Assembly: GCA_004431415.1 (NCBI GenBank)
Contig: QPMI01000071.1
Location: forward strand, 1-64,000
DNA length: 64,000 nt
DNA from: Cyanophora paradoxa CCMP329
Lineage: Eukaryota > Plantae > Glaucophyta
Direction: 5' to 3'
The notes under the pieces were generated by a model that saw nothing but the letters and a program-made list of their open reading frames with translations, was not told the DNA's origin and searched no databases. Below are positions 14,490-40,265 of this stretch, piece after piece. The translations under genes and the position numbers were made by a program. How positions within the stretch are numbered: the stretch's first letter is position 1; each line of letters opens with the position of its first letter.

Positions 14490-15975
14490 TACAGAGTCAT
14501 CCCGCCCGCGCAGATGGAGGTGGTGACTGAGCTCGCGGGGTACGAAGGAAACAGAACAGAACCCACCGCCGCCCTCCGCCGGCCCGTGCCCCCCGGCGGC
14601 CGTCATGGAGCGGCGGCGACTCCGTCTAGGACGTGGCGGCTGCGGTGCCGCGCGTACCCCCCGGCTGCCGTCACGGAGCGGCGGCGCGTCCCTCTAGGGC
14701 GGCGCGGCCGCGGCGCCGCGCGTACCCCTCGGCCGTCACGGAGCGGCAGCGCCTCCGTCTACGGGGGGGGGGCGGCCGCGGCGCCGCGCGTAGCCCCTCG
14801 GCCATCACGGAGCGGCGGCGCCTCCGTCTAGGGCTCTCCCTCCACCAGCATCTCTTTCCTTCGAACCCCCGCGGCGCGGTACGCCCTCGCCCGACTCCGG
14901 CGCCGCCCTAGAGGGAACTGACTCGGCTCCGTGACGGGCGGCGGGGGTAGGTGCACCCTCTTTCGTTCGTACCCCCGCGGCACGGTACGTCCCTCGCGCG
15001 ACGCTGGCGCCGCCCTAGAGGGAACTGACTCGGCTCCGTGACGGGCGGCGGGGGTAGGTGCACCTCTTTCCTTCGTACCCCCCGCGGCGCGGTACGTCCC
15101 TCGCGCGACGCCGGCGCCGCCCTAGAGGGAACTGACTCGGCTCCGTGACGGGCGGCGGGGGTAGGTGCACCTCTTTCCTTCGTACCCCCGGCGGCGCGGT
15201 ACGCCCCTCGCGCGACGCCGGCGCCGCCCTAGAGGGAACTGACTCGGCTCCGTGACGGGCGGCGGGGGTAGGTGCACCTCTTTCCTTCGTACCCCCGCGG
15301 CGCGGTACGTCCCTCGCCCGACGCCGGCGCCGCCCTAGAGGGAACTGACTCGGCTCCGTGACGGGCGGCGGGTAGGCCCGTGTCTCTTTCCTTCGTACCC
15401 CCGCGGCGTGGTACGTCCCTCGCCCGACGCCGGCGCCGCCCTAGAGGGAACTGACTCGGCTCCGTGACGGGCGGCGGGGGTAGGTGCACCTCTTTCCTTC
15501 GTACCCCCGGCGGCGCGGTACGCCCCTCGCCCGACGCCGGCGCCGCCCTAGAGGGAACTGACTCGGCTCCGTGACGGGCGGGGGGGTAGGCCCGTGTCTC
15601 TTTCCTTCGTACCCCCGGCGGCGCGGTAAGCTCCTCGTGCTACCCAAACCCCTGAAGATGCCACTAAGATATATATAAAAAGCCAAATAGATAACGAGTA
15701 CAACTCTCATCCCCGCCCGCGCAGATGGAGGAGCCCACCGAGCTCGCGGGGTACGAAGGAAAGAGGACAGAGCCCACCGCCGCCCTCCACCGCCCGTACC
15801 CCCCTCGGCCGTCACGGAGCGGCGGCGCCTCCGTCTAGGGCGGGGCGGCCGCGGCGCCGCCCGTACCCCCCTCGGCCGTCACGGAGCGGCGGCGATTCCG
15901 TCTAGGGCGGGGCGGCCGCGGCGCCGCCCGTACCCCCCTCGGCCGTCACGGAGCGGCGGCGATTCCGTCTAGGGC
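14490..15975. repeat. Repeat module 1: partial core + 4 x ~67-bp A units, 7 x ~107-bp B units, TATA core, 3 x 67-bp A units
   Basis: CTAGAGGGAACTG at 14908, 15015, 15122, 15229, 15335, 15441, 15548; CTAGGG of A units at 15835, 15902, 15969. Confidence 0.9.
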
Positions 15976-16319
15976 GCGGCCGATCTCCTCCCTCAACCGT
16001 GTACCCCCTCGACAACCTCCACGCGGACGACGAGCCCTTTCCGCATACACGTGCCCTCGTTCGCTTCCACATGCCCTCTGCAACGCCTCTCCCGCCCCGT
16101 ACCCCTCGATACCCCGGCCCGCCCGCCCAACTCCCGCCGTCGCTCGCGGATCGCGAGCCGACTGCGCGCGTTGTTCTCGAATATACGTGATTTGCGGATT
16201 CAACCGAAACGCTGGACGCGTGGGGCGGGAAGGCGCTTTCGCTCGAATTCAACTGACGGCGTGCTTAAAGGCGGAGCAGACGGTCCCTGGACGCACATTT
16301 GCCATCGACCTCGACGATC

Positions 16320-16795
16320 ATGGAGGCCTCTACCGTCGTTCAAAACGCCGCCCGTCGCATCTCCAGCGCCCTCGTCGCCGGTCGACCGATCGCCCTCGCG
16401 CTCCGGACTCCGACCCTGCTCAAGCGCGTCGCCGAGGTCGTCGAGCCCGCCGTCGCCAGCCTCCTCGTGCGCGCACACGTCGTCGTACTGCCGGAGCCGC
16501 GCGGCCACTGGCTCGTCCGCATCACCCCGCCCGGAGCTCAGGAGCCCGCCTCTTGGGGATCAGCGACGAACTCCCCGCCTCCGAGAGCGCCGTCCTCGCC
16601 CTGCTCGCGGGGATTGAGACCGTCGTCGCCCGCTTCGCGCGGGCCGAGGCGGACGAGCTCTCCGCAAAGATCCTCGCGGATCCGCGCATCGCGCACCTGC
16701 GGCGCCGCGTGGGCGTCACGCGCCAGGAGGTACCCGGAGCACCGAATTCGATCTTCTGTGTTTACGCGGTCGGCCGCGGCGCGAGCCGTAGTTGA
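16320..16795 (+). CDS. Hypothetical 158-aa protein, copy 1 (1-nt indel at ~16567)
   Basis: Duplicate of 50699-51175. Confidence 0.6.
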
Positions 16796-17534
16796 CGCGT
16801 TCGTAGGCTCCGTACAGCTAGAAAACGCAGCGCTATAGCTACAGCCAGGCCGTGATGCAATAAGCTCGTCGACGTCTGTTTCGTAAATGCGTACCCCAAA
16901 TCCGCTGATCATGGGAGCGAGCCGGGGCGAGCTCTGCGGCGAGCCGCGAGGCGCGTCGCTGTCTAGCGCTCGTTGCGGGCGTTTCGCTCGCACAGCGAGC
17001 GTCCAGCAGGCCACATCGGCGTGTCACCGGAACGTATCGTTGCAGCGCCCCCAGCGCGACGCAGATGCGGCGGTTGGGTGAGAGAGCCGCGGATCGGAGA
17101 CCTCGGCGGCTCGGATCGCCTCGGCTTCGTGCCGGCGGCCGGCGGGTGTGGCGCGCGCGCGCCCGAGGTACTGTACCTTCGCCTCCGACCGCAACAGCTT
17201 CCGGACGATATTCGCGGTCGAAAAGTCGAGGAGATGGCGGAGGACTGGTGCGCCGTGCCATATGCATCGCGCCGCGCAGCGAGGTCGAGCGCCTTGATAG
17301 CTTACAACCGCGCAGGCCTGGGTCGTCCGGCGCGGACGAGCTCGAGGCCCGGCGGCCGCGGCCTCGATCGAGCGGGCTACGTGCGCGTTCTACCGACACG
17401 GCCCGAGCTCCGTGATAGGCGGCGTGGACCCACGCCGGACGGGCGCGCGGCCAATCTAAGCGGATCCGGAGTCGCGTTCGCAAGCTGTCGCCTTCGATAC
17501 GATAGGTGCGCCCGTTGCTCAGCGCCGGCGTCCC

Positions 17535-18700
17535 GTTAGAGGGGCTTGACGCGGCTCCGTGACGGGCGGCGGGGGTAGGTGCACCCCTCCTTCGTTCGTA
17601 CCCCGCGTAGGAGGTGAATTCCGCGCCCGACGCCGACGCCGCCCTAGAGGGAACTGATGCGGCTCCGTGACGGGCGGCGGGGGTGGGCCCGTGTCTCTTT
17701 CCTTCATACCCCCGGCGGCGCGGTGAGCCCCTCGCCCGACGCCGGCGCCGCCCTAGAGGGAACTGATGCGGCTCCGTGACGGGCGGCGGGGGTGGGCCCG
17801 TGTCTCTTTCCTTCATACCCCCGGCGGCGCGGTGAGCCCCTCGCCCGACGCCGACGCCGCCCTAGAGGGAACTGACGCGGCTCCGTGACGGGCGGCGGGG
17901 GTAGGTGCACCTCTTTCATTCGTACCCCCGGCGGCGCGGTGAGCCCCTCGCCCGACGCCGACGCCGCCCTAGAGGGAACTGACGCGGCTCCGTGACGGGC
18001 GGCGGGGTAGGTGCACCCCTCCTTCGTTCGTACCCCGCGGCACGGTACGTCCCTCGCGCGACGCCGACGCCGCCCTAGAGGGAACTGACTCGGCTTCGTG
18101 ACGGGCGGCGGGGTAGGCCCGTGTCTCTTTCCTTCGTACCCCCGCGGCGCGGTACGTCCCTCGCCCGACGCCGGCGCCGCCCTAGAGGGAACTGACGCGG
18201 CTCCGTGACGGGCGGCGGGGTAGGCCCGTGTCTCTTTCCTTCGTACCCGGTGACGCGGTAAGCTCTCGTGTCACCCATATCCCTGAAGTTGTCACTAAGA
18301 TATATATAAAAAGCCAAATAGATAACGAGTACAACTCTCATCCCGCCCGCGCAGATGGAGGAGCCCACCGAGCTCGCGGGTACGAAGGAAAGAGGACGGA
18401 GCCCACCGCCGCCCTCCGCCGCCCGTGCCCCCTCGGCCGTCACGGAGCGGCGGCGATTCCGTCTAGGGCGGGGCGGCCGCGGCGCCGCGCGTACCCCCCT
18501 CGGCCGTCACGGAGCGGCGGCGATTCCGTCTAGGGCGGGGCGGCCGCGGCGCCGCCCGTACCCCCCTCGGCCGTCACGGAGCGGCGGCGATTCCGTCTAG
18601 GGCGGGGCGGCCGGGGCGCTGCCCGTACCCCCCTCGGCCGTCACGGAGCGGCGGCGATTCCGTCTAGGGCGGGGTGGCCGGGGCGCCGCCCGTACCGTGT
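17535..18700. repeat. Repeat module 2: 7 B units, TATA core, 4 A units
   Basis: Same unit sequences as module 1; core ACTAAGATATATATAAAAAGCCAAATAG at ~18294. Confidence 0.9.
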
Positions 18701-18916
18701 ACCCCCTCTTCGGCCATCGCGGTACTTCCTTCCCGCCATCGCAACGCATATACCAAGCAATAACTCGCGTACACGCACAGGAGCGGGCGCTTTCCGCCGT
18801 CACGGAGCGGATGTGAATCCTCCAAGGCCTGGGTCGGCTCTGTCGAGCGCGTGAGCGAGCCGCCCCCCGCCCCTAGGACAATTGCCCGTCGCTCCGTGAC
18901 AATACCGATCCTTCGC

Positions 18917-21900
18917 TCAGGTACGCGTCTTTGGCGGGCGACCGCGCCGCCGGGCAGGCTGGGCGCCGCGCCCGGCGCCGCCGCCGCGCGACGACGACGG
19001 AGACGAGGACGGCGTGGCAGGCGCCGGGAGGCCCAGCAGCTCCAGAACGCGCTCGGGGCCGGTTCGGATCTCGACCGTGCCGTTCCGTCCCTCGTACTCG
19101 ACGGGATAAAGTGACGAAGGAAAGCTCCACTCGCGCGGTCCGCCCTCCTGGCTCGGCGCCCACGCGCCGCCGAAGCGCTTCAGCACCACGAAGCGTGACT
19201 CGTACTCGCCGCTCGGCAGGTCGATCGTCTGGACGAGGCGCGCGAACCACACGCCGGGGAGCGGGCTCGCCGCGTGCGTCGCCAGCGCCGCCACCACCTG
19301 CCCCGCCGGGTACGGCGAGGCCGACCGCCAGTGCAGGTGGTAGAGGGGCGGCGCGGGGCCGGCGGCGGCGACGCCGACGGGGACGGGCTCCTGGGAGGCG
19401 CCGCCTCGGCGCCCGCGCGCGCGGCCGAGGCCACGCCGGCCGCGCGCGCCACGGAGGAGGCCGCGCGAGCAGTAGTGCTCGTGGGCCCGCGCCCCGGCCG
19501 AGTTCTTAAACTCCTTGCGGTGCGTCAGGGCGGCGGCGCGGGGGGGGCGGCGCGGGGCGGGGCGGCGCGACCTGCTCACCCGATCGCAGGGCGCGCAGTA
19601 CCTCTGCTCGGCGATGGCGAGCTCGCGCTCGAGGGTGTAGTCGGCGTCCCAAGCGCGCGGCCTGTCGGCCCCCGTCCGCCGCCGCTTGGCCTCTTCGCTC
19701 CCGTCGGACGCGCCGCTCCCGTCCTCGCCATCGTCCTCCGAGTACGAGCTGGAGCTCTCCGCGCCGCGCCCCGCGCGGAAACGCGCCGAGGCGGACGGAG
19801 GCGCGGTTGACGGCGCCGGCTCGTCGTCGGCGTGCTCCTCGGAGCCTCCACCGTCGTCCCGCCCCACCTCGGTCCCGCCGCCCAAGCTCCCGCCCGCCGT
19901 CGAGGGCGCGGGGGATCCGGACGGCGGCGGCGGCGGCGGCGGCAGCGCCGGTGCCGGCGGGAGTTCGAGGCGGGGCGGCGCCTCGGCCGCGGCGGCGCTC
20001 TCGCGGGCCCGGAGCCGGGCTTCGTCGTGCTTGACGGCGAGCTGCTCGAGGTACGCCACCGCCGCCGCCGCCGTGCGCGCCCGCGCCGAGTAATCGTAAT
20101 TTTGCGTCGCCGTCAGCACCGAGTGGCCCAGAAGCTTGGCTGCCGGCGCGCGGGTGGGGCGAGGGAGGCGAGGGGGCGGGGGCGCTTCGGCGTACCCGTC
20201 CCGTCGACGACGGCGGCCGCGGTGTCGCCGGAGATGCGGTTCGCCGCGGCCTCGTCGCGCACGTGCGTCGTGATGATGGCCCGCATCGCCTGCGCCGTCA
20301 CCGGTACCCCCGTCCACTTTTCCGTCACGCGCTTGACAAAGACGCTCCAGGCCGAGTCGGAGAGGGGCGCTCCCGAGGCGCTCGTGAAGAGCCAGCCCTC
20401 GTCCGCGCCCCCCGGCAGCGGCGGGAGGAGGAGGCGCCGGTACCGCTCGACGTACGAGGTGAGCGGCCGCTGCACAAACTCCGGGATCGGGTAGCTGATC
20501 GCCCCCGCAGTTTTCGCGGTCTTCGACGAGAGGACGGCCTCGCCCTGCCCGCGTCCGCCCGCATCTGGGTGAGCGTGATTGTCCACGCGCCGCCGTCCCG
20601 CCGCAGCGTGTGGCCGATCCTGCGGGGGCGCAGAGGGCAGGACGGGGCCCTCGCTCGGCGCGGGGCGACGGCGCGGCGCGGGGGTACGGCACCTGAGGCG
20701 GCGGACGATGCCGACGCGCGAGGGCGTGGAGACGAGGAGCGACAGGAGGACGCCCTCGCGGAGGGCGAGCGCCCTCTCGTACTCCAACGGCGCCCGCTCC
20801 GCCGCCTCGAGCGCATCCAGCCGCGCCGAGAGGAGCGCCTCGAACGGCACCCAGTTCGGTCCGCGCTGACGCCATTTCACGCCTTCGCGCTTCTCCTTTC
20901 TCAGCTGGGCGATCAGGTTCCGCAGCGGGCGCCCGTGGGGGCCCTCGGAGCCGGCGGCGGCGCCGGCCGTCCGCGCGTGGACAAAGGAGTGGGCCTGGAG
21001 GGCCGCCTGCGTGTACCCCGCCAAGGTGCCCGCCCGGACCCTGCGCTCGCCGCGGAGAAACGCGAGGAACCGCATCCACAGGTCGATAAAGTCGACGCGG
21101 GCGCCGGAGAAGAGGTCGAGCGTGAGAGCGCCGTCGATCTTCTCGCGGAGGGCGCAGTACCCCAGGAACCGGAGGAGCGTCGTCCGCTCGTTCGCCAGCG
21201 TCGTGGAGCGCTCGACGGCGGCGCCGGGGCGGTCGGGGTTGAGGAGGCGGGTGCGAAACTCTTCGTACGCGGCGAGCTGCGCCTTGAGCTCGCGCGACTG
21301 ATCCTCCTCGCGCAGGCCGTACGGGGCGCCCCGCTCTGCCGGCTCGTCGCCCGCGGGGCCTTCGTCCTCCTCCTCGCCGTGCTCGTCGGCCGGGGGTACG
21401 GGCGGCGGGGGCGGCGAGGCCCCCGCCTCGGCGGACCCCTCGGGATCGGCGCCGCCCGAGTCCGACTCGGACTCGTCCGGCTCGGCGGGGGCGGGCGCCG
21501 GCGGGGCGCGGGCGCGCTTGGGGGGTACAGGGTCCCCGGCGGCGCCGAGCACCACGCGCTCGGGGTCCACGAGGGCGTCCACGTCAAAGAGCGTCGCCCC
21601 GCCGTGGTCCATGCTCTCCAGCATCCGCCGGTACGCCAGCCGCTTCTCGGCGATGAATTTCCCGTTGTCCTTTGCGATCTGATCCGCCATAGGGCCCCCG
21701 GGGCGGAAGAAGTGGATGGAGCCCTGCTCGAGCTCGTCCGACCACGGAAAGCCCGTCGTCGCCTCGACGATCCCCACGTCCGCGATCCAGAGGACCCCTG
21801 CGCGGTGCGCGCGGCATGAGTTTGATCCCGTTACCCCCGCGGAATCGAACCGGGCCCCGCACAGATGCCGCATTGGAACCCGTCCCCCTGGAGGCGCCCA

Positions 21901-23313
21901 CCGGCCGTCTCCTCGCGGTACGCGTGCGCGGGAAAGGCCGCCTGGGCGGCGTAGAGCAACCTGGCGTCGCAGGGCGCGCCGAGGCTGTCCCAGTACCGCG
22001 TCGTCCTGCGGGGGCGGCGCGATCGCGAGTGGCGCAGAGGACGCGGGCTCGGGCGCGGGGGCGCGGGGCGCGGCGCCGTCGGACCTCGCGGCGCCGGAGA
22101 GCACGAGCAGCGTCCAGTGCCCGCCGCTGTTCGACGTCCGCTCCGCCCCGCGCCGCGCGATCGACGTCGAGACCGGGCAGAAGAGGGTACCCCCGCGCCA
22201 CGAACCCCAGGGCCTTGCGCTGACGCCGCTCCTCGCCCGCCGCAGCGTAGCGCCGAAGGAGGCTCGTCAGAATCTCCACCGGCATGGGGTACAGGGCCCG
22301 CACGCGCGCGTTCTTGGCGCGGTGGAGCAAGAGGCTCATCACGTTGGCGACGTGCGTGTCGGCGAGCCACTCGCGCGCGCCAAAGATACCGACCCTGGGT
22401 CCCGCAGGCGCCGGCGCGGGGGCCGCGGCGGCGACGGTGGCGGGGTCGGCGCCCTCTAGCACGAGCCGCTGGCGGCGAAAGTCGAGGTGGAGGTTCGGAT
22501 CCCGGCCGGGGAGATCCTTCAGGAGGCTTTCGACGGCGACGGCGCTGAGGAACGCCCAGCGGCGCGCCGAGCTCCGCGTTCGCTCCCCGTCGACCTCGGC
22601 GCCGATGCCGGCGTAGTAGGTGAGCGTCCTCGTGAGCATGCCGAAGCGCTCGCGCCCGACGCTGAGCGTCGTAACGTTCCAGCGGTGCGGGCCGCCCGAC
22701 GCGAGTTCCGGGAGGCGGCGCTCGATCTCCCGGCGGAGCGAGTTCGTGGCGCGCGAGGAGCCGTAGAGGAGCTCGGAGAGCGACGCCATGGGGACCCAGA
22801 GCTTCAGGTCCGGAGCCTCGATCCGGGTCGCCGGCAGGGCGTAGAGCCGCTCGCCGCCGACGCGCACGACGTGCAGGTCGTAGCGGGAGAGGGCGCACAG
22901 GCGGCGGCGCTCGTTGGCGGCGTAGAACGCGGTGGCAGCGGCGCGCTTCCGGGCCTCGTCGCTGTCCGCCACGCCTGGTCGACGACCTCGAGCACGTACC
23001 TCATCGACAAGAGGCGCGGCGGGTCCTCGGGCGTGTACTCGCCGCGCCGGACGGCCCCGAGGGTCTCCAGGAGGAGGATCGCGTGCTCGCTCGGCACGGG
23101 CCGCGCTGGGACGCCATAGCGCGCGGTGAGCACGTCCTGCACCTCGTCCTCGCCCTCGCCCTCGGCCAACGGCGGCTCGCCCAGGACGCGCGCGAGCTCG
23201 GCAGAGCAGACGGAGGGCCCGGCGTCGGACTTTAGCACCACGAGCTGCGTCCGCCCCCACGGCCCGTCGAACTCGATCAGCTCGTACGCGTCGTGGACCG
23301 TCTGGAAGTACAT
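18917..23313 (-). CDS. Spliced multidomain integrase: unknown N-terminal domain + Ulp1/C48-type cysteine protease + tyrosine recombinase + C2HC zinc finger
   Basis: Protease: REWLADTHV, GGHWTLLVL, RYWDSLG, QGDGFQCGI|WVLW. Recombinase: TPSRVG (R), SSKTAK (K), WLF, TAQAMRAI, T|AKLLGHS, TQNY (Y). Zn finger: CAPCDR|EFKNSAGARAHEHYC. GT-AG introns at 21798-21862, 20620-20692, 20140-20195 and 19514-19579 each restore a motif in frame. Confidence 0.85.
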
Positions 23314-24000
23314 GGTCGCCGGCCGGGCCGTGCGGGCGGGCGACCCGGAGTGGGAGGGGCGAGGTGTTGGGATTCGACGTGCGGGGTGGGATCTATTTAT
23401 GGGTAACCTCGCACCTTTAATCCTCGCGCTCGCGTCGCCGATGTTATCTTTAGTCCCTGCGCACAGGCCGCGCGCGGGGCGGAAGGCCGACGGGAGCGGA
23501 CGAGGCCGAATCGTATCCCCACGAGCCGAGGCCGCCATCCCACGACGTTGATCACGTACGCCCGCCCGGCTTCGTCCCCCCCCTACACCTTACCCCCTCT
23601 GAAATTCGGCCAGGTTTGCCACCTAGGGGCGCCCCGCCCTCGTCGCCCGCCTGCGTCGCGGCGGCGGCCGCCGCGCCCCGCCCCGCATTGACCACGTACG
23701 CCGGCCCGGCTTCGTCACCCCCACCCCCACCCCCGCCTTTGCTAATATTCGGCCAGGTCTTCCACCAAGGCGCTCGGCAACGCGCGGCGTCGGCGACTCA
23801 TCACCGCCGCCCGCGGCGATGAGATCGGTGCGCCCCCGCCGGCTCGGGCTTCGGGGACGGCGCCGGGCGCCCTGCGACGCCGCGAGGCTCAGATCCGAAC
23901 GCGGCGGCGCGGGAGGCGGAGGGCCGTCTGGAGCGGACGTGGCCGAACTCTCCCCAGAAATGCCTCCGATCTCGCTCCTCCTCGAGCTCGTCTTCGTCGG

Positions 24001-24438
24001 ATGACAGCTATGACACCGATGATCCTTCTCTGCTCCGACGGCGTCCATATCCCGTGCCCCGCGGCGCTCGCCGCCGACGCCCGCATCCTCTCCCTCGCCT
24101 CGAGCTGCTCCGACGCCGACGTGGCCCCCGTCCCGCTCCCCTTCCGCTCCTCGCTCGTGTCGGCGGCCGGCGTCGCCCTCTCGCACCCCTCACCCGCGGC
24201 GGCCGCCCTCGCCCCCGGGGCCTACCCCGACCCGCGGGCCGCCGCCTCGGCTCTCGTCTTCCTCGCCGAGCTCGCGATCCTCGCCGATTACCTCGACGCC
24301 CGGCGGCTCGAGCTGGCGTGCGCGGCGCTTGCCAGCAGCGCGTCCGAGCTCGCCATCAAGTCCGCCTGGGCCAAGGCGAGCGTCCGTCCGCCCCCCGCCC
24401 CGCGGAAGCGCCCCTTTCAGGCTATCGGATCTTCGTAG
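24001..24438 (+). CDS. Skp1/BTB-POZ-like protein
   Basis: ILLCSDGVHIPC...ARIL...PVPLPF...LAELAILADYLDARRLELAC resembles the Skp1 pattern L.SSDG ... IPLP ... L.ELI.AANYL.I..L; C-terminal PRKRP is NLS-like. Confidence 0.7.
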   Translation: MTAMTPMILLCSDGVHIPCPAALAADARILSLASSCSDADVAPVPLPFRSSLVSAAGVALSHPSPAAAALAPGAYPDPRAAASALVFLAELAILADYLDARRLELACAALASSASELAIKSAWAKASVRPPPAPRKRPFQAIGSS

Positions 24439-26102
24439 GGACGTGTATTGAACGGCCTCTCCGAGTACTGCGTGCACCGGCGTCTGCGGGGCCAGGGGTA
24501 CAGATTTTGGGGACCCTTGGACCCCTCTCCGGGGACCTAGGGTTCGTTTTGAAACGAGGTCCGGGATCCGCACTAGCAATTTATTCGCGCTCTCCGGGCC
24601 CTCCCCAGCCCCTGCGATGCGTTTGTGCGGGGCCGACTTTTTGTTTAACGGGGTATTCGACGGTCCCTCAATCTGTATTGGACCTTTTGGTTTTTAATTT
24701 TTAGTTTCTTTGATGCACCTTGGCTCGGCACCTCGCTCGGGGTTTGTGTTTCTATGATACTAGGACACGATATTCGCACTCGGTGCCCTGCGTTTCCAAT
24801 ATTTCGGTTTTCGAGCCCTCGGTCCCGCCCATACATGGGAGGGGTCGGTCTCCCGTACCCCGTCCCAGACCCTCCCCCCGCCTCGAGCATCACGTACGGG
24901 AGTGCCCCACCCGTAGAATTCATTTTCAAGCGGGGATTGGGAGGTTTTGGGGGTCAAGGGCCGGGGCTCATGATCACCCCGACGCCACCGCCTCGACCTT
25001 GTCCTCGCGACGGATGCGCCTCCGGAGCTGTATATCTTTGGGCTGGATCGTCACGCTGCGGCGTAGGCGCGCGTCTAGCGCGTCAGGTCGGGCATCGGGC
25101 ACGCGATCGCGGGACATTCAACTTATAATATTAATTAGGGTATCAATGATGATTATTTGGGCGCACCGCTTTGCATGAATGGCCATCAAATTGCCGTCCT
25201 CAAAGGTCTCGATCGCGTGCCTGCGCGCGGGGGGCCGGGGTGGGATGCATATGATTACGTTAATTAGATGTGGGAATTTAGTATGATCATGAGACTTACG
25301 CCTCGGCGGCCTCACGCAGGGCGAGAATCGAGTCCTTTGACCAGCGGATCCCAAACGGGACGTTGGACTCGCCCGTGTTGCGCCGTTCCTTGAGTTGATC
25401 GTCCGTGATCTCCTTGACGAGTCGCAGAAACGGACCGAGCGCGATGATAGGCTGCGTCGACTGCGTTATATGTACATGTTAGTATATCAATATCTATACC
25501 ATAGTATCATGTACGTTTCCGCATACGTAACTTAGTAAGGAAATTGAATGATTATATATAACGTACCTTTTGCCACTTGCGAATTTCCCTGAGAGCCACC
25601 GTGCCCTGAATTTCGAAATCATAGTCGCCGATTCACCAACTCAATGAGTAAGCTTAAGCTTTAAGCTTACTATTAAGAAACGTGTACCGGGCGATAGCGA
25701 TGAGGTTTCTTCACCCCACCGGCCGCGGGAGCGTTCTTTCTCGCGCTCTTGGACGACGACTTCAGAGAGGCGAAGCGCTTGCGCGGGGCCTTGTGTCCGG
25801 TCCCCTTCTTAGACCCTTGCGCGTGTTTCGTGCGCGCCATCCGGGTCCGATCGTCCCGCGCGCGAGCGGCCTGCGAGAGTCGATCGCGTGGGCGTCTAGG
25901 GTGCGGCCCTCGTGGGGGGATCCGGAGGCCTAGGCCTAGAATTAGGGGCCGGGGGGTTCACGGGGGTACTCAGAGGCCCAGCGAGATGCCGCTGCGCTCA
26001 TCTCGCGAACAAACGATTTTCCGGATGTATTTGTGCATCCCGCGAGACCGAAGAGGGGGTACATGGGAATGTACATGCCTAGCTATAGGTTTAATAATAT
26101 AA

Positions 26103-26438
26103 TTAGAACTCGTCGGCGAAGCGCTTCGGCGGGCCGACGAGGCGGAGGGGGGCGCGGGGCTTGAAGCCGGCCTTGATGCATTCCGCCGCGTAGACTTCGT
26201 AGGTAAAGCTGTTCAGCGCGTCGCACACGAGGGCGTCGAGCTCCGGATCGCTGGGGAGGCCGCACGCCGTAATGTCCTCGGGCGTCCAGAGCTTGGCAGA
26301 GGGGCGCGTCTCGGACGTGGGCTTGATCTCGACGGCGGGGTCCGTGCTCGAGCTCGTCGGCGTCGCGACTGCATCGCGATCGGCGAGGGGCGTCGCGCGC
26401 GACGGCGGGCTCGCGTCGGTGTACACGTTGGCGTCCAT
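26103..26438 (-). CDS. Hypothetical 111-aa protein
   Basis: ACCATGG start context, normal composition (LWTPEDITACGLPSDPELDALVCDAL), AT-rich 3' tract. Confidence 0.55.
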   Translation of the reverse strand: MDANVYTDASPPSRATPLADRDAVATPTSSSTDPAVEIKPTSETRPSAKLWTPEDITACGLPSDPELDALVCDALNSFTYEVYAAECIKAGFKPRAPLRLVGPPKRFADEF

Positions 26439-26621
26439 GGTGGCTGGAATTCAACGATCGCGAGGAGATTTAGAGAAAGAGGAATGGTGGTCCGGGCCTT
26501 CCCTGCGGGGTCCCGCCCGCGCAGAATCCCTCGCGGATTCGAGCGAAAGCAGCAATTTCACTATCTTGTATTCAGACGAAACCAGGCTCGAGCGCACGGA
26601 TACACGAATCGAGGATGCAGC

Positions 26622-28554
26622 TCACGCGGCCTCGGCGTGATCGTTGGGGGCCGACGTCGACCCGCCGCCGCCGCCATCCGAGCTCGAGCTCGCGCCGTCC
26701 GCCTTGAGCCGAAACACCGCCGCCGGCATCCGAACCAGGGCCGCCCCGTTCTCGCCCTTGTACGAGGCGACGCGCTCCTGGAGCCGCTGCTCGAGCGCGG
26801 CGACGGCCTCGGCGGGGGCCCGCTGGAGGAGCGGGAGGTAGGCGATAAAGTCGTGCGGGCTGACGCCATCGCCGACGACGCGCGCAAGGCCGGGGAGCCG
26901 CTGCAGGACGCGTGCGCAGGAGCAGAGGTCGGCGTAGACCTTGGCGCACGCCGCCCGGTCCTCGAGGCGCAGGCCGCACGCCTCGAGGATCGGCGAGTAC
27001 TTTGGCTCCACGCTGTCCTTGCGGAAGAGGCCCCAGCTCCTCGGGTTCCGCCCGTTGGCCTCCCGGAAGCGCTCGAACGCGCCGAGGATGCCGGAGCTGA
27101 CGAGGAGGAGGCACCGGATCCGCTCGCGACCCGCGTGCTGCGCGCGGGCGTAGAGGGCCCGCCGGGCGCCGGCGTCGGCGTCGAGCTGGATCCCCACCAG
27201 GGCCGCGTCGACCTGCGGGCGGGGCGGGCATGAGGTGAGGCCGGGGGAGGGGTCGAGATGGAGGGCGTACCCCCGCCGGAGGCCGCGCTCGAGCTCGGCG
27301 AGGGCCGCCGCGCCCTCGTCCTCCTCCTGGGCGGGCGCACCCTCCTCCCCGGCCCCTCGTCGCCCCCGCCCCGCTCCGAGCCCGAGTCGGACGAGGAGGA
27401 GAGCTCCTCCATCGCCCCCTCGAACGCCGCCCGCCGCTCCTCCTCCCACGTCTCCATCGGGTCCGCCTCGCCCTGCGCGCCGGGCGCGCCCTCCTCGGAG
27501 CCGGCGTCGGCGTCGTCGTCGTCGTCGTACTCGGAGAGCCTGCACGTGTACGCCTGGTAGAGGAGCTTGGCGAGCTTCTCGCTCTCCCACGGCGGCCGCC
27601 GCTCGGCCGGCTGCCGCCGCGCCCGCTTGGCGAGGGGCCCCGGGCCCGCGGCGGCGGCGCCCTTGCTGGCGTCTCCGTCCTCGAGCTCGTCCTCTTGCTC
27701 GCGCTCGGCGGCGGCGGAGGCCGCGCGGGCGGGGGCGACGCGCCGCGGCGGGCGGCGCGGCGGCTCCGGATCCGATTCCGCAGAGGCCGCCGCGGCGGGG
27801 GTGGGCTCCGGGGGGGCCGGAGCCGCCCTGGGAATCTCAGCGGGCGCCGGCGCCGAGGAGGACGAGGCCCCCGCGCCGTCGCAGAGGGCGAGGGCGGGGC
27901 GCGCCTCCGGGGCCGACGGGCGCGCCGCCGACGGGCGGTTCGCGAGGTAGACGGCGTGCTGGGCGGCCTGGGAGACGCTCGCCGCGCCGGCCCAGGACTC
28001 GGGGCGCTCGGCCTCGTGGACAAAGGCGCGGTAGGCAAGGTAGCCGTCGACGCGCGACGAGGGGACGAGGGCGGCGAGCGTGGGGTGCGGCTCGCGGCAC
28101 GCCCCCTGCGCCATGGGGCACTCGACCTCGCCCTCGGCGTCTCCGGCGGCGTCGGCGCAGCGAAGGGCCTGCGCGCGCGGCGACGGGGTGAGCGGGGCGG
28201 TCAGGGGGGGTAAGGCGGGGGTACCGGTACCTTGGGGACGCAGGCGAGGCACGCGAGGCCGTGGTGTCCGATGAGGCGGCCCGCCCGCTCGTCGTTGAGG
28301 TCGATCGCGCGGTCGAGGTCGCCGCCGCCGGCGAGCTCGACGATGCTCGCCGCGAGGCACGCCGGGACGTAGGCCGGAGGGTGGAGCCGCTGCGAGCGGC
28401 AGACGGAGCATTGTGGGCGTAGGTCGAGTTCGAGCCACGCCGAGATGTACTTGGGCCGCGAGACCCGCGCGCCGCGCGTATCCAGCGGCGGGGCGGCGCC
28501 GGCGGACCCCGCGGCGGGCTCGGCCCGCTCCTTACCCTTAGCTCCCGTACCCAT
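26622..28554 (-). CDS. Spliced RING-like zinc-finger protein with acidic linker and helical C-terminal domain
   Basis: CSVC...PAC...GHHGLACLACVPK|ALRC...VECPMAQGAC joined across a GT-AG intron at 28169-28230 (CTGAC branch site). A second intron is possible at ~27212-27270, and a probable 1-nt indel at ~27390. Confidence 0.65.
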
Positions 28555-28681
28555 GCAGGCCCGGACGCGATCGCCGCTCGTCCACGAGTGGCCCCCGCGG
28601 GCCGCGGGACGCTCTCCTTTACGAATCGCAGCGGGCCGGCGGACAAGGCGGAGGCCCGAGGCGGGGAGCAAACGCAGGAGA

Positions 28682-29465
28682 GGTGCGCCTACCCCCGCCG
28701 CCCGTCACGGAGCCAAGTCAGTTCCCTCTAGGGCGGCGCCGGCGGCGGGCGAGGGACTTACCTCGCGCCGCCGGGGGTACGAAGGAAAGCGATGCGGGCC
28801 TACCCCCGCCGCCCGTCACGGAGCCGAGTCAGTTCCCTCTAGGGCGGCGCCGGCGGCGGGCGAAGAGCTCACCGCGCCGCCGGGGGTACGAAGGAAAGAG
28901 ACACGGGCCTACCCCCGCCGCCCGTCACGGAGCCGAGTCAGTTCCCTCTAGCGCGGCGCCGGCGGGGGGCGAAGAGCTCACCGCGCCGCCGGGGGAACGA
29001 AGGAAACAGACACGGGCCTACCCCCGCCGCCCGTCACGGAGCCGAGTCAGTTCCCTCTAGCGCGGCGCCGGCGGGGGGCGAAGAGCTCACCGCGCCGCCG
29101 GGGAACGAAGGAAACAGACACGGGCCTACCCCGCCGCCCGTCACGGAGCCGAGTCAGTTCCCTCTAGGGCGGCGCCGGCGGCGGGCGAAGAGCTTACCGC
29201 GCCGCCGGGGGTACGAAGGAAAGCGATGCGGGCCTACCCCTGCCGCCCGTCACGGAGCCGAGTCAGTTCCCTCTAGGAGGGCGCCGGCGTCGGGCGAGGG
29301 GCGTGTACCGCGCCGCGGGGGGTACGAAGGAAAGAGATGCTGGTGGAGGGAGAGGACCGGCCGCGTCCTAGGGAGAATCGCCGCCGCTCCGTGACGGCCG
29401 AGGGGGGTACGGACGGCGCCACGGCCGCCCCGCCCTAGACGAACGCGCCGCCGCTCCGTGACGGC
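28682..29465. repeat. Repeat module 3 (inverted relative to modules 1 and 2): 6 B units + 2 A-like units
   Basis: CCGTCACGGAGCCGAGTCAGTTCCCTCTAG on the + strand, the reverse complement of module 1 B units. Confidence 0.9.
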
Positions 29466-29679
29466 CTTCAAAGGCCGCCGCAGCAGACTTCGTGACGTGA
29501 GCGGCTCTCGGCGACCCATAGGGCGGCGGAAATACGACGCGTGCGCGTCCCGCGCGCGCCTTCCGTGCCCGCCGCGCGAGCCGTGCGGGCGGGACTCCGG
29601 GACTCGAGCGGCGCCCCGCGCCCTCTGCCCGATAAAAGGGCGGTACCCCAGCGCCGGTCACGTGCACGCATCCGCTCCC

Positions 29680-29898
29680 ATGTCGCAGGAGACGGCCCGG
29701 ACGCTCGCCCACCGCCTCGCCCGCGAGCTCCCCCGGCAAGCTCCGATCCTCGTCGCCGTCCCCGACCCCGCCTTTTTCTTGCACGCGATCCACCTTCTCG
29801 AGGCCAACACCAGAGACCTGTTCGCGGACTTTAAAATAAGCTACAAAGCGACTTTGGACGGGCGCTGGGGCGTACAGATGGTCCCGCTCGATTTTTAG
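29680..29898 (+). CDS. Hypothetical 72-aa protein, paralog of the 158-aa ORF N-terminus
   Basis: GATAAAAG box ~45 nt upstream; 13/61 gapless identities with the 158-aa ORF. Confidence 0.6.
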   Translation: MSQETARTLAHRLARELPRQAPILVAVPDPAFFLHAIHLLEANTRDLFADFKISYKATLDGRWGVQMVPLDF

Positions 29899-30219
29899 AT
29901 AGGAGGCGTGTGTTGATTGGAAACCGAGACCGCGCGCCCGGCGGAGGGGCCGACTGCACGAGTGGGGGTGAGCGCGGGTCCCGGGTGGCGTCGTGCGGGG
30001 GGCACGCACCGCCCGAACCGGGTTTCTATGGCGCCGCCGCGCGCGCGAAAGTCCCCCGCGCCCGCCGTTGCACTCGAAGCGAGTGTACCCCCGCTTCCGC
30101 TGCATGTAAAGCGAGTGTAAGTGACCGAAAGGTGGCCGCGAAGGCGCGCTTACAATGTGCGGGCAGGTCTCATCGAAGCAGGTGAGGAAGACGCGCGCCG
30201 CGAGAGGCGTACCCCTGCC

Positions 30220-30920
30220 GCCCCGCCCTAGACGGAATCGCCGCCGCTCCGTGACGGCCGAGGGGGGTACAGGCGGCGCCGCGTCCGCCCCGCCCTAGAC
30301 GAACGCGCCGCGGCTCCGTGACGGCCGAGGGGGGTACGGGCAGCGCCGCGGCCGCCCCGCCCTAGACGAACACGCCGCGGCTCCGTGACGGCCGAGGGGG
30401 TACGGGCGGCGCCGCAGCCGCCCCGCCCTAGACGAACACGCCGCGGCTCCGTGACGGCCGAGGGGGTACGGGCGGCGCCGCGGCCGCCCCGCCCTAGACG
30501 AACGCGCCGCGGCTCCGTGACGGCCGAGGGGGTACGGGTGGCGGAGGGCGGCGGAGGGCTCTGTCCTCTTTCCTTCGTACCCCTCGAGCTCGGTGGGCTC
30601 CTCCATCTGCGCGGGCGGGGATGAGAGTTGTACTTGTTATCTAATTGGCTTTTTATATATATCTTAGTGACAACTTCAGGGGATTTGGGCAGCACGAGGG
30701 GCTTACCGCGCCGCCGGGGTACGAAGGAAAGAGACACGGGCCTACCCCCGCCGCCCGTCACGGAGCCGAGTCAGTTCCCTCTAGGGCGGCGCCGGAGTCG
30801 GGCGAGGGGCGTACCGCGTTGCCGGGGGTACGAAGGAAAGAGACGCGAGCCTACCCCCGCCGCCCGTCACGGAGCCGAGTCAGTTCCCTCTAGGGCGGCG
30901 CCGGCGTCGGGCGAGGGGCT
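30220..30920. repeat. Repeat module 4 (inverted): 5 A units, TATA core, 2 B units
   Basis: CCCTAGAC at 30226, 30293, 30360, 30426, 30492; reverse-complement core TTGGCTTTTTATATATATCTTAGT at ~30645. Confidence 0.9.
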
Positions 30921-31204
30921 TACCTTGGGGCGATGCGGCCCGCATCCCTCTATCCCCATAAAGAGAAGCCGCGACTCGTCCCCCGCGGGGTGTGGATGGA
31001 CGAAGACCGGCGCCCCCCCACGCCGGCGCCGCTTTCATCGTACCCGCCGCCGCCGCCCGCCGGGGCGCTCAGACCCGTGCCCCTCGGGCTGCCGCCCGCC
31101 GCGAGCTTCTCGAAGCGGGCGAGGCGCGCGCTACCTCCGGCCGAGCCGCCTGCGGAACGGGGATCAGACGTGTAAAGAGGACCGGGGCGCGGGACTCGGT
31201 AGCA

Positions 31205-31303
31205 ATGGATTCCGAGGCACCTACCAAGGCCAAAGAGGACGCACACATCGCGGCGGGCGCGGCCGCAAACTCGGACCCCGAAGACGAGGCGACCAAGGGA
31301 CCT

Positions 31304-31334
<31 letters not shown>

Positions 31335-31732
31335 GTAAGGCGCGGCCGTTCCACGCGAGCTTCGAGGGACAGCACGTGGCGTACCTCCTGCACAACGGCC
31401 GCACGTGGTACACCGGCGAGACGGCGAACCTGACGCGGCGGTACAAGGAGCACACGCGCGGCACGATCCGCGGATCGTACACCAAAGGCAAAGGGCCCTG
31501 GCGCCTCGTGGCAGTTGCGGCGCCCTTTTCCAACCGCAGCGTCGCGCAAGGCTTCGAGACGACGCTCAAGGGCAAGTCGGGCGGCCAGGCGAAGCGCCTC
31601 GAGGCGATGCGCAAGCTGGCGACCGAGTACTCGGCGCCGGGCGCGCCGATCGCGGTGCACGTCAACCCGGATCTCTCGGATAGCGAAAGCGAGGGCTCTC
31701 CTGCGAGGGCAGACCGTAGGGGCGTCAGCTAG
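31205..31732 (+). CDS. GIY-YIG endonuclease, SLX1-like
   Basis: VAYLLHNGRTWYTGETANLTRRYKEHTRG...SYTKGKGPWRLV...FSNRSVAQGFE. Confidence 0.9.
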
Positions 31733-31977
31733 GCCGGGGATCGAGCTCGGCCCGTCCACGGGCTCGCACGCATGGTAGAGCGATCTGATGCTGCACGTAC
31801 CTCGCGATCAACTCGAGCACCTGATCCGCGTTTGCTCGCCTCGCGGGAGGGACCGTGGGCTCCTCGGTGTGCAAGCACGGCGCGCTAAAGTAGGACGCGT
31901 ACCGGGGTACCCCCGAACGCGCTTCGTGCGGCGATCCGAGGCGCTCTGTGCCTCGAAATCAACCAAAGCGCATTCCC

Positions 31978-32687
31978 TTAGGGCGTCAAAGGCTGTCCTT
32001 TCCGCTCAATCGCCTCGGCGCCCAAGTACGAGGGCTCGAAGCGGCGGAACGTGCACCCTCGAGTGCGCGGGTGTTCCTCGTGCGCCATGTTCGAGCTGTT
32101 TCGCGCATTCATGGCCCCGAGGCGAGACGCCGGCCGCGCCCGCGGCGATGCCGAAAGGGATGTCGGCCCCCGCGGCGACCGCGGCGGCGGCGACGACGGC
32201 GGGGCTCCTTCCCGAGCTCTCGTGCCTCTCCTGAGCCCGCCGCCCTCCGCCTTTGGCACCCGCCCGCTCTCTGATCGACTCAACATAGTCCGCCGGCCGC
32301 GGTACGTGAGCACCGCCCGTCCGCGCTGGATCGCCCGCACAAACCTCACGAGCTTGCCGCGTCGCCCTCGCAGGTCGTGATGCCAGCCTACCGCGGGCAC
32401 CCAAGGGCGACGTACGCGTCGACGGCGACCGCGCGCGGCCATCTCGCACGAGCGCCCGCTCCAGAGCTTGCGGTCGGCCAGCAGGCGGCGCACATCGTCC
32501 AGCGCGTTCTCGGAGAGCGCCGTCGCGTCGGCCGCGGTGCGCAGAACATCTTTAAGCCGCGCTGAGGTTCGTCCCGTTGCCCGCGCTTCGATGGCGATCC
32601 GGCGTCGATCGCCGCTTCACCGCGCGCCCCGCAGGCATCGCAGACGGCGCCCTCGCACGACCAAAGGATCATCCCTCCGGGGCACAT
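31978..32687 (-). CDS. Possible hypothetical protein (frameshifted), N-terminal Cys pairs
   Basis: Two overlapping ORFs (CEGAVCDAC...; VGWHHDLRG...LVRFVRAIQRG); no recognisable family. Confidence 0.2.
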
Positions 32688-32699
32688 CGGCGGCGGCTG

Positions 32700-33447
32700 C
32701 GATTCGTACCCCCGTGCGTACCGTACCCCGCGCAGGAGGTGAGCTCCTCGCCCAACGCATGCGCCGCCCTAGAGAAAACTGACGCGGGTCCGTGACAGTG
32801 CGCGGCGGGGGTAGGCCCGTGTCTCGTTCCTTTGTACCCCCGAGGAACGGTAAGCTTCTTCATGTCGCCTCAATACCTTGTGGTTGTCACGATCGCGAGA
32901 TGACGAGTACAACTCCCATCCCCGCCCGCGCAGATGGAGGAGCCCACCGAGCTCGAGGGGTACGAAGGAAAGAGGACGGAGCCCACCGCCGCCCTCCGCC
33001 ACCCGTACCCCCCTCGGCCGTCACGGAGCGGCGGCGCCTCCGTCTAGGGCGGGGCGGCCGCGGCGCCGCGCGTACCCCCCTCGGCCGTCACGGAGCGGCG
33101 GCGCGTTCGTCTAGGGCGGGGCGGCCGCGGCGCCGCCCGTACCCCCCTCGGCCGTCACGGAGCCGCGGCGTGTTCGTCTAGGGCGGGGCGGCTGCGGCGC
33201 CGCCCGTACCCCCCTCGGCCGTCATGGAGCCGCGGCGTGTTCGTCTAGGGCGGGGCGGCCGCGGCGCCGCGCGTACCCCTCTCGGCCGTCACGGAGCGGC
33301 GTCGATTCCGTCTAGGGCGGGGCGGCCGCGGCGCCGCGCGTACCCCCCTCGGCCGTCACGGAGCGGCGGCGCCTCCGTCTAGGGCGGGGCGGCCGCGGCG
33401 CCGCCCGTACCCCCCTCGGCCGTCACGGAGCGGCGGCGCTTCCGTCT
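32700..33447. repeat. Repeat module 5: 1 B unit, core lacking the TATA, 7 A units
   Basis: TCTAGGGC recurs at ~67-bp period from 33043 to 33378, plus a terminal variant. Confidence 0.9.
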
Positions 33448-33696
33448 TTATGTTATTTTAATCCTTCTATTTCTAGACGAGTACTCCGTGTATAACTACG
33501 TGTGCCGTAGTACCGTAGGGCTTCCCGTGATCACAGTGCACACGCGCGCGCGGCCGCGATGCGGCCCGTGGAGGCTTCGAATTCGCATGCGGCGGTAGCT
33601 GAGGCAAACCACGAGCCCTCCGTGACAAGTCTCCTTTCGCGCGTGCACTTCAAAATTCGGTAAAACCATCGATATCAAATAATGAACTATCTATAA

Positions 33697-39669: not shown

Positions 39670-39724
39670 GTCCGAGGGCCGGGTACCGTCGACGTCCGGG
39701 GCCCGGACCTTCACGGCACGCCCC

Positions 39725-39782
39725 GGGCCCGTCTCCTTATATATGTGCCGGCCCCTCCCGGCACGTGCACGGCCCCACGGCC
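39725..39782. promoter_or_regulatory. Compact divergent promoter with TTATATAT box (copy 1 at ~5530-5586)
   Basis: CCTTATATATGTG is the only AT-rich patch in the ~113 nt between the helicase ATG (-, 39669) and the Cys-rich ORF ATG (+, 39783). Confidence 0.5.
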
Positions 39783-40223
39783 ATGACCATGGCCATGGCC
39801 CCTCCTCGAGCTCCCGAGCCCCGCGTCGGGGATCGCGTCCCCCGGCCCCTCCCCGCCCCCGCCCGGACCTGCCGGGCCTGCGGCGGAGCCGCTCCTCTCG
39901 TCCGCCGCAGTGCACTCTGCTGCGCCTGCCGAGCGCGGTACGAGCGCGAGCGCAGGAGGGCCGTGCGCGTGACCGCGGGGGGCCCCTGCCCCGCGGCCAG
40001 CGACGTCGACCCCCGCGTCGGACGCGTGCGCCGCATCTGCAAGCGATCCGACGGGCTCGTCGTCGCCTACTGCGGCCGCTGCCGAATCGTCTTACCCCTC
40101 CAGTCCTTCCAGATGGCGACTGAGGGCAGGTTTTACAAGCGGTGCCCAACGTGTCGGCGCGAGGACGATCGAGCTAGAGCGGCGAGGCTGAGGGGGCGCG
40201 CCGTCTTGGAGAAAATTGCATAA
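39783..40223 (+). CDS. Small Cys-rich zinc-ribbon protein (~146 aa)
   Basis: Paired cysteines CRAC, CCAC, CGRC, CPTC; ATG downstream of the TATA; stop followed by an AT-rich TAAATAGA. Confidence 0.55.
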   Translation: MTMAMAPPRAPEPRVGDRVPRPLPAPARTCRACGGAAPLVRRSALCCACRARYERERRRAVRVTAGGPCPAASDVDPRVGRVRRICKRSDGLVVAYCGRCRIVLPLQSFQMATEGRFYKRCPTCRREDDRARAARLRGRAVLEKIA

Positions 40224-40265
40224 ATAGATGCGAAACGCGGGAGCATTCGAGGTACCCACTGGGCC

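Follow-up and report, generated by a model that had tools for sequence, protein, structure and literature searches.

A bipartite motif with a fixed 14-nt gap in arrays of a tandemly integrated mobile element of Cyanophora paradoxa: a candidate initiator-binding site

Plasmid iterons are short direct repeats in helical phase that lie beside a rep gene, and the tyrosine recombinase of the yeast 2-micron plasmid is Flp. Rep1/Rep2 bring Cse4 to the STB repeats of this plasmid. In the account of PMC2064333, the 2-micron plasmid is a nuclear selfish DNA whose STB consists of tandem ~65-bp repeats and holds the centromeric H3, Cse4. In HSV oriS, as described in PMC12543377, inverted OBP boxes flank an AT-rich spacer and the C-terminal domain of OBP binds them. 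AEP-UL9 primase-helicases are reported from mimivirus (R8), ASFV (pF1055L), SmDNAV and some mriyaviruses, the last with genomes of 35-45 kb (PMC11253617; 10.64898/2026.08.29.747986). Polinton-like viruses with a tyrosine recombinase are 14-40 kb long, are integrated in protist genomes and also encode a helicase (PMC12220804; 10.64898/2026.06.19.733378). Baculovirus homologous regions (hrs) lie at several intergenic places, each with 2-8 repeats of about 65 bp, and their strength as origins and enhancers grows with the number of repeats (PMC4535591).

The window analysed here is a 64,000-nt stretch of C. paradoxa CCMP329 (contig QPMI01000071.1, positions 1 to 64,000). By its sequence, most of it consists of tandem copies of a 34-kb virus- or plasmid-like mobile element integrated in the genome of the alga (Table 1). 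Positions 1-24688 and 34177-59071 are 98.9% identical, with 13 mismatches and 259 gap columns. The last base common to both copies is 24682/59065, and contigs of two DNA runs (X1 and X12) both end at 24682|24683. The element was not found in the open literature searched; a table of endogenous elements may list it.

The predicted domain order of the 1950-aa protein is the same as in the AEP-UL9 viruses. Spliceosomal introns, a tyrosine recombinase and a histone set the element apart from these, and no capsid, A32 ATPase, VLTF2/3 or HUH gene and no sequence relative were detected. It resembles the Polinton-like viruses in size, in its integration in a protist genome and in its combination of tyrosine recombinase and helicase, but no MCP, mCP or A32-like ATPase was detected and the ATPase of the element is a classical AAA+ with introns. 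Searches for major and minor capsid proteins and the A32 ATPase give no match in Pfam (47, 47 and 13 ORFs or segments) or PHROGs (9); the search sets overlap and cover part of the frames, and introns could hide a divergent capsid gene.

The earlier note described about 50 copies of GTCACGGAG-N14-YCTAGGG with fixed spacing between 14490 and 33447, and this count is borne out. With up to 2 mismatches, the window contains 82 matches against 0.10 expected by chance, 49 of them inside 14490-33447. Of the 62 exact matches, 39 are in positions 1-34176, with 37 of these inside 14490-33447, and the second, partial copy has 23. The tally per 34.4-kb unit is 39 exact and 51 near-exact sites. When gaps of 5-29 are scanned, the gap between the half-sites is always 14. 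A PWM scan gives no additional strong sites, the 4.9-kb flank beyond the element, a small sample, contains no motif and an Rfam search gives no match. Collection scans return single matches (78 metagenome stretches and 1 viral), none of them clustered; these are treated as chance. The core motif is asymmetric. The 9-bp palindrome CCGTCACGG, pointed out earlier, is not conserved, and all three solo sites read TGTCACGG. The spacer, described earlier as free, has an invariant G at position 5 across the five contexts and is constrained at positions 3, 9 (purine) and 12 (pyrimidine).

Most sites lie in two tandem repeat units, A (24 copies per unit of the element) and B (23 copies). The A copies form six arrays of 2-7 with a period of 67 bp (6.4 turns), and the B period is about 106-111 bp. 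All arrays are intergenic, adjoin small genes and have a GC content of 73-82%. A and B had been regarded as unrelated. Outside the half-sites, their consensus sequences agree at 28 of 42 anchored positions against 15.4 expected (p about 1e-5), and they form the inverted arms of one imperfect palindrome, each amplified, centred on a linker. The B arm points one way and the A arm the other, with the inner motifs 223-235 bp apart; B, described earlier as opposite in strand to A, is present on both strands. Outside the motif, the dyad beats 500 of 500 shuffles in all four modules. The linker centre is a TA tract of 15% GC in three of the four modules, ~110 bp from the motif sites on each side. Such dyads do not include the three solos or two converging array junctions. 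A 37-codon ORF after the linker is not preserved in all five copies.

Table 1. Features of the element and of its motif arrays (positions in the window).
Feature	Position	Strand	Remark
Complete element unit, 34,383 bp	24683..59065		The tandem copy before it contributes its right part, 1-24682
RING finger protein	6066..6737	+	Pfam zf-RING_2 E=7.6e-7
Solo motif 1	7402..7431	-	Recurs at 41600-41629
Solo motif 2	7511..7540	-	109 bp from solo 1
AAA+ ATPase, intron-containing	10040..13620 (approximate)	-	Pfam AAA E=1.2e-4, one segment
A array, 4 degenerate copies	14597..14834	+
B array, 7 copies	14848..15628	-	On +, each unit is a 73-nt GT-AG intron and a short exon
Linker 1, dyad centre with TATATATAAAAAG tract	15629..15789		Also an intron on +
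A array, 3 copies	15790..15980	+
B array, 7 copies	17534..18248	-
Linker 2, dyad centre with TA tract	18249..18416
A array, 4 copies	18417..18696	+
Degenerate motif, 2 mismatches	18799..18828	+	Converges on solo 3
Solo motif 3	18871..18900	-	Recurs at 53263-53292
Fusion protein, intron-containing	18917..23313	-	Winged-helix-like N-terminal region, CE-clan (Ulp1-like) protease, tyrosine recombinase, C2H2 finger
Histone H3 variant, intact, 162 aa	24974..25840	-	Four GT-AG introns; tail and alpha3 canonical-like, loop-1 exon CenH3-like
B array, 6 copies	28687..29337	+
A pair	29366..29462	-
A array, 5 copies	30217..30543	-
Linker 3 (inverted module), dyad centre with TA tract	30544..30694
B pair	30695..30924	+	30742-30814 skipped as a minus-strand GT-AG intron in RNA-type contigs of two studies
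GIY-YIG nuclease, short stand-alone domain	31205..31732	+	Pfam E=4.5e-8
Degenerate single B	32767..32796	-	Within spliced 60-nt intron 32739-32798
Linker 4, dyad kept, no TA tract	32799..32996
A array, 6 complete copies; a seventh breaks off within half-site 2	32997..33447	+
1950-aa intronless protein	33697..39549	-	Predicted AEP primase, Zn finger, UL9/CyRepA1-like SF2 helicase, long uncharacterised C-terminus

By a rough measure, the depth of A and B units in DNA runs is about 16-28x that of unique element DNA. This is close to 24 A and 23 B copies per unit and so indicates no large host-wide family of arrays. The depth suggests only a few element copies per genome, and two DNA runs show no sign of an amplified episome. 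Introners and MITEs are dispersed host-wide copies with a TSD or TIR; here, the depth fits the number of units in the element, and the units are tandem. The 3' end of a Helitron has a hairpin and CTAG; this identity was rejected for the motif, as the sites are internal and the unit ends have no CTRR. The arrays had also been likened to baculovirus hrs and to plasmid iterons, and they belong to neither class. Like hrs, the A repeats form several dispersed arrays with units in the 65-70 bp range. The core of an hr is an imperfect 24-30-bp palindrome in an AT-rich context, whereas the present core lacks this symmetry and sits in GC-rich arrays, and a search for an IE-1-like gene in the element gave none. 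The periods of A and B and the dispersal of the arrays in both orientations differ from the layout of iterons. A functional analogy to hrs or iterons is plausible.

All three solos retain both half-sites and the 14-nt gap, as reported earlier, with the 15 fixed bases and the pyrimidine intact in each. Outside the half-sites, they are no more similar to A or B than shuffles are (p 0.06-0.92). In one case, solos 1 and 2, the gap between motifs (79 nt) is the same as in B (77-79 nt) without sequence homology. Inside the arrays, the half-sites have 2 alleles against 6.4 expected in A (p=0.018) and 2 against 6.1 in B (p=0.034); these tests are moderately significant, and the copies are not independent of each other. 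A flank-anchored version of the B test, with one row misaligned, gives p=0.11. Because the solos are perfect without flank homology and the half-sites are less variable inside arrays, the site is likely to be under selection. On these patterns the motif is likely a protein-binding site in DNA, as proposed earlier; the proposal keeps the support of the solos, the allele deficit and the lack of a common RNA fold, and loses its argument from two independent repeat units, which is void since A and B share ancestry. The arrays could instead be neutral minisatellites from one ancestral palindrome, with the motif in A and B by descent and the solos as relics. The homology of A and B, which count once as arms of one dyad, and the modest strength of the allele tests fit such an origin. 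It is nevertheless very unlikely, since drift does not spare 16 chosen bases three times: the solos have every one of these bases at the exact spacing, with no detectable homology left in flanks or spacers.

None of the sequencing runs is recorded as RNA; those used as such are taken to be RNA, a guess that the GT-AG joints support. RNA-type contigs of two studies skip one B intron and the degenerate B intron; the splicing of B units as introns was missed by the earlier note. The GT donor is kept in 23 of 23 B copies, with consensus-like variation, and the TAG acceptor in 21 of 23. These features and one B segment that folds well (z=-3.5) are consistent with an RNA signal, in which B is a repeated intron whose conserved halves would serve as a splicing signal or as a small RNA borne by the intron. 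This is highly improbable. One spliced transcript carries the motif in both orientations and the motif segments share no RNA fold (10 of the 11 that were folded do not beat shuffles), which argues for a DNA signal. On the same transcript A has the opposite orientation and is unspliced, as an 83-nt contig that spans an A unit indicates. Other non-coding parts of the element are spliced as well, and the host is rich in short introns, with a mean of 86 bp in the account of PMC6704402.

A further reading is that a host or element transcription factor binds the motif, that the arrays are enhancers or promoters of neighbouring element genes and that the TA tract is a TATA box. The position of the arrays beside small genes, the TATAAAA of the linker tract toward the A arm and the spliced RNAs that cross the region are consistent with this, and hrs are described as both origins and enhancers (PMC4535591). 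The TA tract is absent from two of five linker copies and sits inside a spliced intron, the start codons of the helicase, recombinase and H3 genes have no motif just upstream, and the small flank sample has none. Regulation of transcription is considered unlikely as the main role of the motif.

The reading that is tentatively preferred, as a possibility, is that the motif is bound by the UL9-like initiator of the element and that the dyads are multiple candidate origins. The 1950-aa protein is likely the initiator and a candidate binder. Its helicase has an Atlas top match of 0.98, to a cluster with Herpes_ori_bp on 53% of its members, and matches NCBIfam CyRepA1 at E=2.2e-5, far under the family cut-off. 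The putative AEP primase motifs were assigned by eye. The helicase has no match in Pfam or in the PDB, solved OBP structures included, and no relative among 1.84 billion representatives; for helicase and recombinase alike, only the element's own copies were retrieved. As in HSV-1, inverted sites surround an AT-rich spacer; the HSV-1 replicon encodes a UL9-type SF2 helicase (PMC12543377), and the helicase here is predicted to be UL9-like. In contrast to oriS, several loci carry tandem arrays of the site, a bipartite motif of 30 bp, and in contrast to OBP, the helicase is fused to a predicted primase.

Under the initiator reading, one protein or dimer would contact both half-sites, whose centres, separated by about 22 bp or two helical turns, lie on the same face of the DNA. 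The binder would be the C-terminal ~750 aa of the helicase, comparable to the C-terminal domain of HSV OBP. Cooperative binding to both arms would melt the TA tract, and the fused primase would then start synthesis. The tyrosine recombinase would excise and integrate a circle, with 24682|24683 as the joint. Each arm of a single ancestral dyad would have been tandemly amplified, to 67-bp A and 107-111-bp B, since additional sites may strengthen origins or enhancers, as is reported of the hrs of baculoviruses. Several features argue against this reading: the distance from site to TA tract exceeds that of the closely spaced oriS boxes, the TA tract is absent from one of four modules, and RNAs that cross the arrays have lost linkers and B units by splicing.

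The earlier note also missed a CenH3-like histone encoded by the element, and this opens a partition reading. In searches of the loop-1 exon against the PDB, Cse4/Cnp1 occupy 9 of the 11 best rows (best E=0.0016), and the first plain H3 ranks 12th (E=0.37). Loop 1 has about 12 residues more than that of H3 and 9 more than that of Cse4, and W is present at the F84 position (RW motif); a longer loop 1 and W for F84 are listed as CenH3 features in PMC3156773. The tail matches canonical H3 (E about 1.5e-9) and is not divergent as in CenH3. No RNA-type contig covers the H3 gene in the two runs examined, which is not evidence of silence.

The arrays could be a centromere-like partition or tethering locus, where the motif is bound by a protein of the element, possibly the recombinase fusion by its winged-helix-like N-terminus, that brings in the histone. 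By analogy, A arrays of 2-7 x 67 bp are comparable to the STB of about six x 65 bp with Cse4 (PMC2064333). Atlas leads of the fusion score 0.90-0.93, and the lead to plasmid RepA_C/RepC/TrfA winged helices scores 0.90-0.92; the top three matches are unnamed clusters and the score is not calibrated for protein parts. Other points against partition are the canonical-like tail and alpha3 and the weak Cse4 match, which could stem from the long loop alone. STB is described as AT-rich and necessarily transcription-free (PMC2064333), whereas these arrays are GC-rich (up to 82%) and transcribed, with spliced RNA entering an A array. The 2-micron plasmid borrows host Cse4 and the host replisome; the element is integrated and encodes its own H3 variant and predicted initiator. 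Partition is a doubtful primary role for the motif.

The profile matches of the recombinase are weak (PHROG integrase E=3.7e-4, XerC E=0.003, Pfam Phage_integrase E=0.022), and the protease motifs of the fusion are seen within a weak PDB alignment (E=0.36). Single-sequence structure predictions have low pLDDT (34 and 35). The motif is unlikely to be a recombinase arm site, as 4 kb separate the joint from the nearest copy and repeats of at least 14 bp are absent from the surroundings of the joint. GIY-YIG nucleases target CNNNG; the motif as such a target is unsupported, the nuclease here being a short stand-alone domain. Two assignments made by eye were also dropped: the small ORFs at 16.3 and 29.68 kb give no BLASTP alignment as paralogues, and the ORF at 24.0 kb has no Pfam or PDB match as Skp1/BTB-like.

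Taken together, the predicted genes could describe a capsid-less integrative nuclear plasmid with its own maintenance kit: multiple dyad origins served by a primase-UL9 initiator, a tyrosine recombinase, and a CenH3-like histone with an H3 tail that is loaded at sequence-defined arrays, which would amount to a self-encoded point-like centromere. This combination is decidedly doubtful. Hardly any replicator or partition sequences have been charted in the mobile DNA of protists. A single small element, in an alga that can be cultured, here brings together a candidate site, the variation that the site allows (five contexts, about 50 copies) and two candidate binders, which makes the pairing directly testable. 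Glaucophytes could gain a nuclear episomal vector from it. Should the H3 variant prove centromeric, the case of a mobile element with its own CenH3 would bear on the idea that selfish circles can give rise to sequence-defined centromeres.

The bipartite motif consists of two half-sites, the second of them YCTAGGG, separated by a 14-nt gap. There are 62 exact matches in the window, 39 of them within the first 34.2 kb, and 14 is the sole gap present among gaps of 5–29. Allowing up to two mismatches raises the number to 82, compared to 0.10 in shuffles, and 49 of these lie inside 14490..33447. The listed arrays (flank-anchored collection) hold 24 copies of the 67-bp A unit and 23 of the 107–111-bp B unit; three perfect solo sites are found besides. 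The feature is thus real and for the most part matches its description in the earlier note, fixed spacing included. The palindrome CCGTCACGG, pointed out in the earlier note, is not kept in the solos. Public collections contain single matches to the motif only.

The motif lies in a tandem duplication. Positions 34177–59071 are 98.9% identical to 1–24688 (13 mismatches, 259 gap columns), and the differences look like read error. The last base common to both copies is 24682/59065, and in each of two DNA runs the contigs end between 24682 and 24683; the unit is therefore 24683–59065. Copies are joined head to tail without overlap, and unrelated DNA without the motif follows. DNA-run depth on unique element DNA, which is not a copy number, is ~220–330, while host contigs that match by chance are a few times shallower; this suggests a low-copy element. 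Relative to the DNA left of the joint, depth on 24683–25476 is 1.2–1.4-fold, and variants of the introns are present, so an extra copy of the element's left end may exist. On the A and B units, depth is ~16–28-fold relative to unique element DNA, which is near their copy number per unit, and only 4–5% of mapped DNA contigs run into unlike sequence. The arrays therefore appear to be restricted to the element. The loose ends at array positions, among those listed, match other element parts by eye.

Features of the element and its flank
Feature	Coordinates	Strand	Remarks
Solo motifs	7402-7431, 7511-7540, 18871-18900
37-bp repeat	8028-8162		3.6 copies, internal imperfect palindrome; adjoins AT-rich 8160-8620, ~500 bp from solo pair; second origin candidate
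Converging A/B junctions	14834-14860, 15975-16000, 29337-29366		conserved
Orphan ORF	16320-16838	+	no family match
Orphan ORF	17027-17389	-	no family match
Recombinase fusion gene	18917-23313	-	introns; winged-helix-like N-terminus (Atlas lead), CE-clan protease (weak match), tyrosine recombinase
Spliced RNA-type contig	21315-24434	+	2425 nt, two studies; antisense to recombinase gene; ends at stop of Skp1/BTB-looking ORF
Skp1/BTB-looking ORF	24001-24438
Two ~83-bp copies	23547-23770		78% alike; upstream of recombinase gene; possible promoter duplication
H3 variant	24974-25840	-	intact, four introns
Orphan ORF	26103-26438	-	no family match
Orphan ORF	26561-28554	-	no family match; Cys/His clusters resembling zinc finger
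Orphan ORF	29680-29898	+	no family match
End of last A array	33447-33480		inside half-site 2, at AT-rich stretch; joint also in DNA-run contig
1950-aa protein	33697-39549	-	predicted UL9/CyRepA1-like helicase
AAA+ ATPase	in element		profile match
RING protein	in element		profile match
GIY-YIG nuclease	in element		profile match
Flank	59066-64000		own 90-150-bp dispersed repeats, long runs of C and of G; motif absent; CpG o/e 1.1 vs 1.2-1.4 in element

The 1950-aa protein contains a predicted UL9/CyRepA1-like helicase (Atlas, 0.98; NCBIfam, E=2.2e-5) and, presumably, the AEP primase and Zn-finger motifs spotted by eye. The label of its cluster is Cyanophora paradoxa, and a ~99% copy occurs under a second contig name; for the recombinase gene there are four models under three contig names. 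Sequence searches, including 1.84 billion representatives, found no relatives of the protein. Primase-UL9 fusions are described for mimivirus R8, ASFV pF1055L, SmDNAV and some mriyaviruses (PMC11253617; 10.64898/2026.08.29.747986; both in part). Among the ORFs scanned, none matched a capsid or packaging gene, and no description of the element was found in the open-access literature searched. The motif carrier is an orphan integrative element that bears introns and apparently lacks a capsid.

The A and B units, previously called unrelated, are not. Outside the half-sites their consensus sequences agree at 28 of 42 positions, where 15.4 would be expected. With the motif masked, the B and A arrays diverging from each linker are inverted copies over ~60 bp, and this likeness exceeds 500/500 shuffles in all four modules. 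Three of the four linkers contain an alternating TA tract. One ancestral dyad, each arm of which was amplified, explains both units, and the two supposedly independent units therefore count once. A second junction, where A and B arrays converge, is also conserved, which makes linker-A-junction-B the higher-order repeat of the arrays.

The flanks and spacers of the three solos have no significant A or B likeness (p 0.06–0.92). The solo pair keeps the B period of 109 bp across an unrelated 79-nt gap, a single case. Among 19 interior A units, 2 extra alleles occur in the 16 half-site columns versus 6.4 expected (p=0.018), and among 18 interior B units 2 versus 6.1 (p=0.034); copies are non-independent in both tests. 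Including the array ends gives p=3e-5 in A and, with one misaligned row, p=0.11 in B. The spacer, earlier called free, is not entirely so: across five contexts one position is always G and three others are restricted to purine or to pyrimidine. The motif is likely a site under selection, and its proposal as a candidate protein-binding site stands; that the arrays are neutral repeats is improbable.

It is very improbable that the motif acts in RNA, even though B units are spliced. In RNA-type contigs from two studies, the B unit is removed as a 73-nt GT-AG intron, with just 21 nt on the shorter side. A degenerate B is removed as a 60-nt intron and the linker is spliced too; these contigs extend into the A array. 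The donor GT is kept in 23/23 B copies. However, A on the same RNA is opposite in orientation and unspliced, and 10 of 11 segments fold no better than shuffles. Spliced RNA antisense to the recombinase and nuclease genes is present as well, and the host is rich in short introns (PMC6704402, in part). We take the splicing to reflect read-through RNA and not to explain why the motif is there.

The half-site centres are ~22 bp apart, two turns on one helix face, a spacing at which one protein or dimer could contact both. The leading reading, held at somewhat less than even odds, is that the motif is a site of the UL9-like helicase and the dyads are origins, the inverted arms around the TA tract acting like oriS. 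In HSV oriS, the boxes are bound through the C-terminal domain of OBP, and its dimers destabilise the spacer (PMC12543377, in part). Both systems have inverted sites around an AT-rich spacer, and the replicon here encodes a putative UL9-type helicase. The distance of the sites to the TA tract, the module without a TA tract and the solos outside dyads argue against this reading. Growth of the arrays would make for stronger origins or enhancers, as described for hrs (PMC4535591, in part); an enhancer role of the arrays is unlikely.

Partition, with the H3 variant loaded at the arrays as Cse4 is at STB, would fit the variant's loop-1 exon, which matches Cse4/Cnp1 first: 9 of the best 11 rows carry these names, the top one with E=0.0016, and plain H3 first appears with E=0.37. 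Loop 1 is ~12 residues longer than in H3 and W replaces F84, both CenH3 features (PMC3156773, in part), and about six 65-bp repeats serve as the Cse4 loading site of the 2-micron plasmid (PMC2064333, in part). However, the Cse4 match is weak, tail and alpha3 are canonical-like, so that the tail is not that of a CenH3, and STB is rich in AT and free of transcription (PMC2064333); partition is therefore unlikely. The variant's tail also has 2-residue and 5-residue insertions and an altered K9 context. The arrays could serve as origins, enhancers and partition sites at once, and they may work like hr, oriS or STB arrays while being a member of none.
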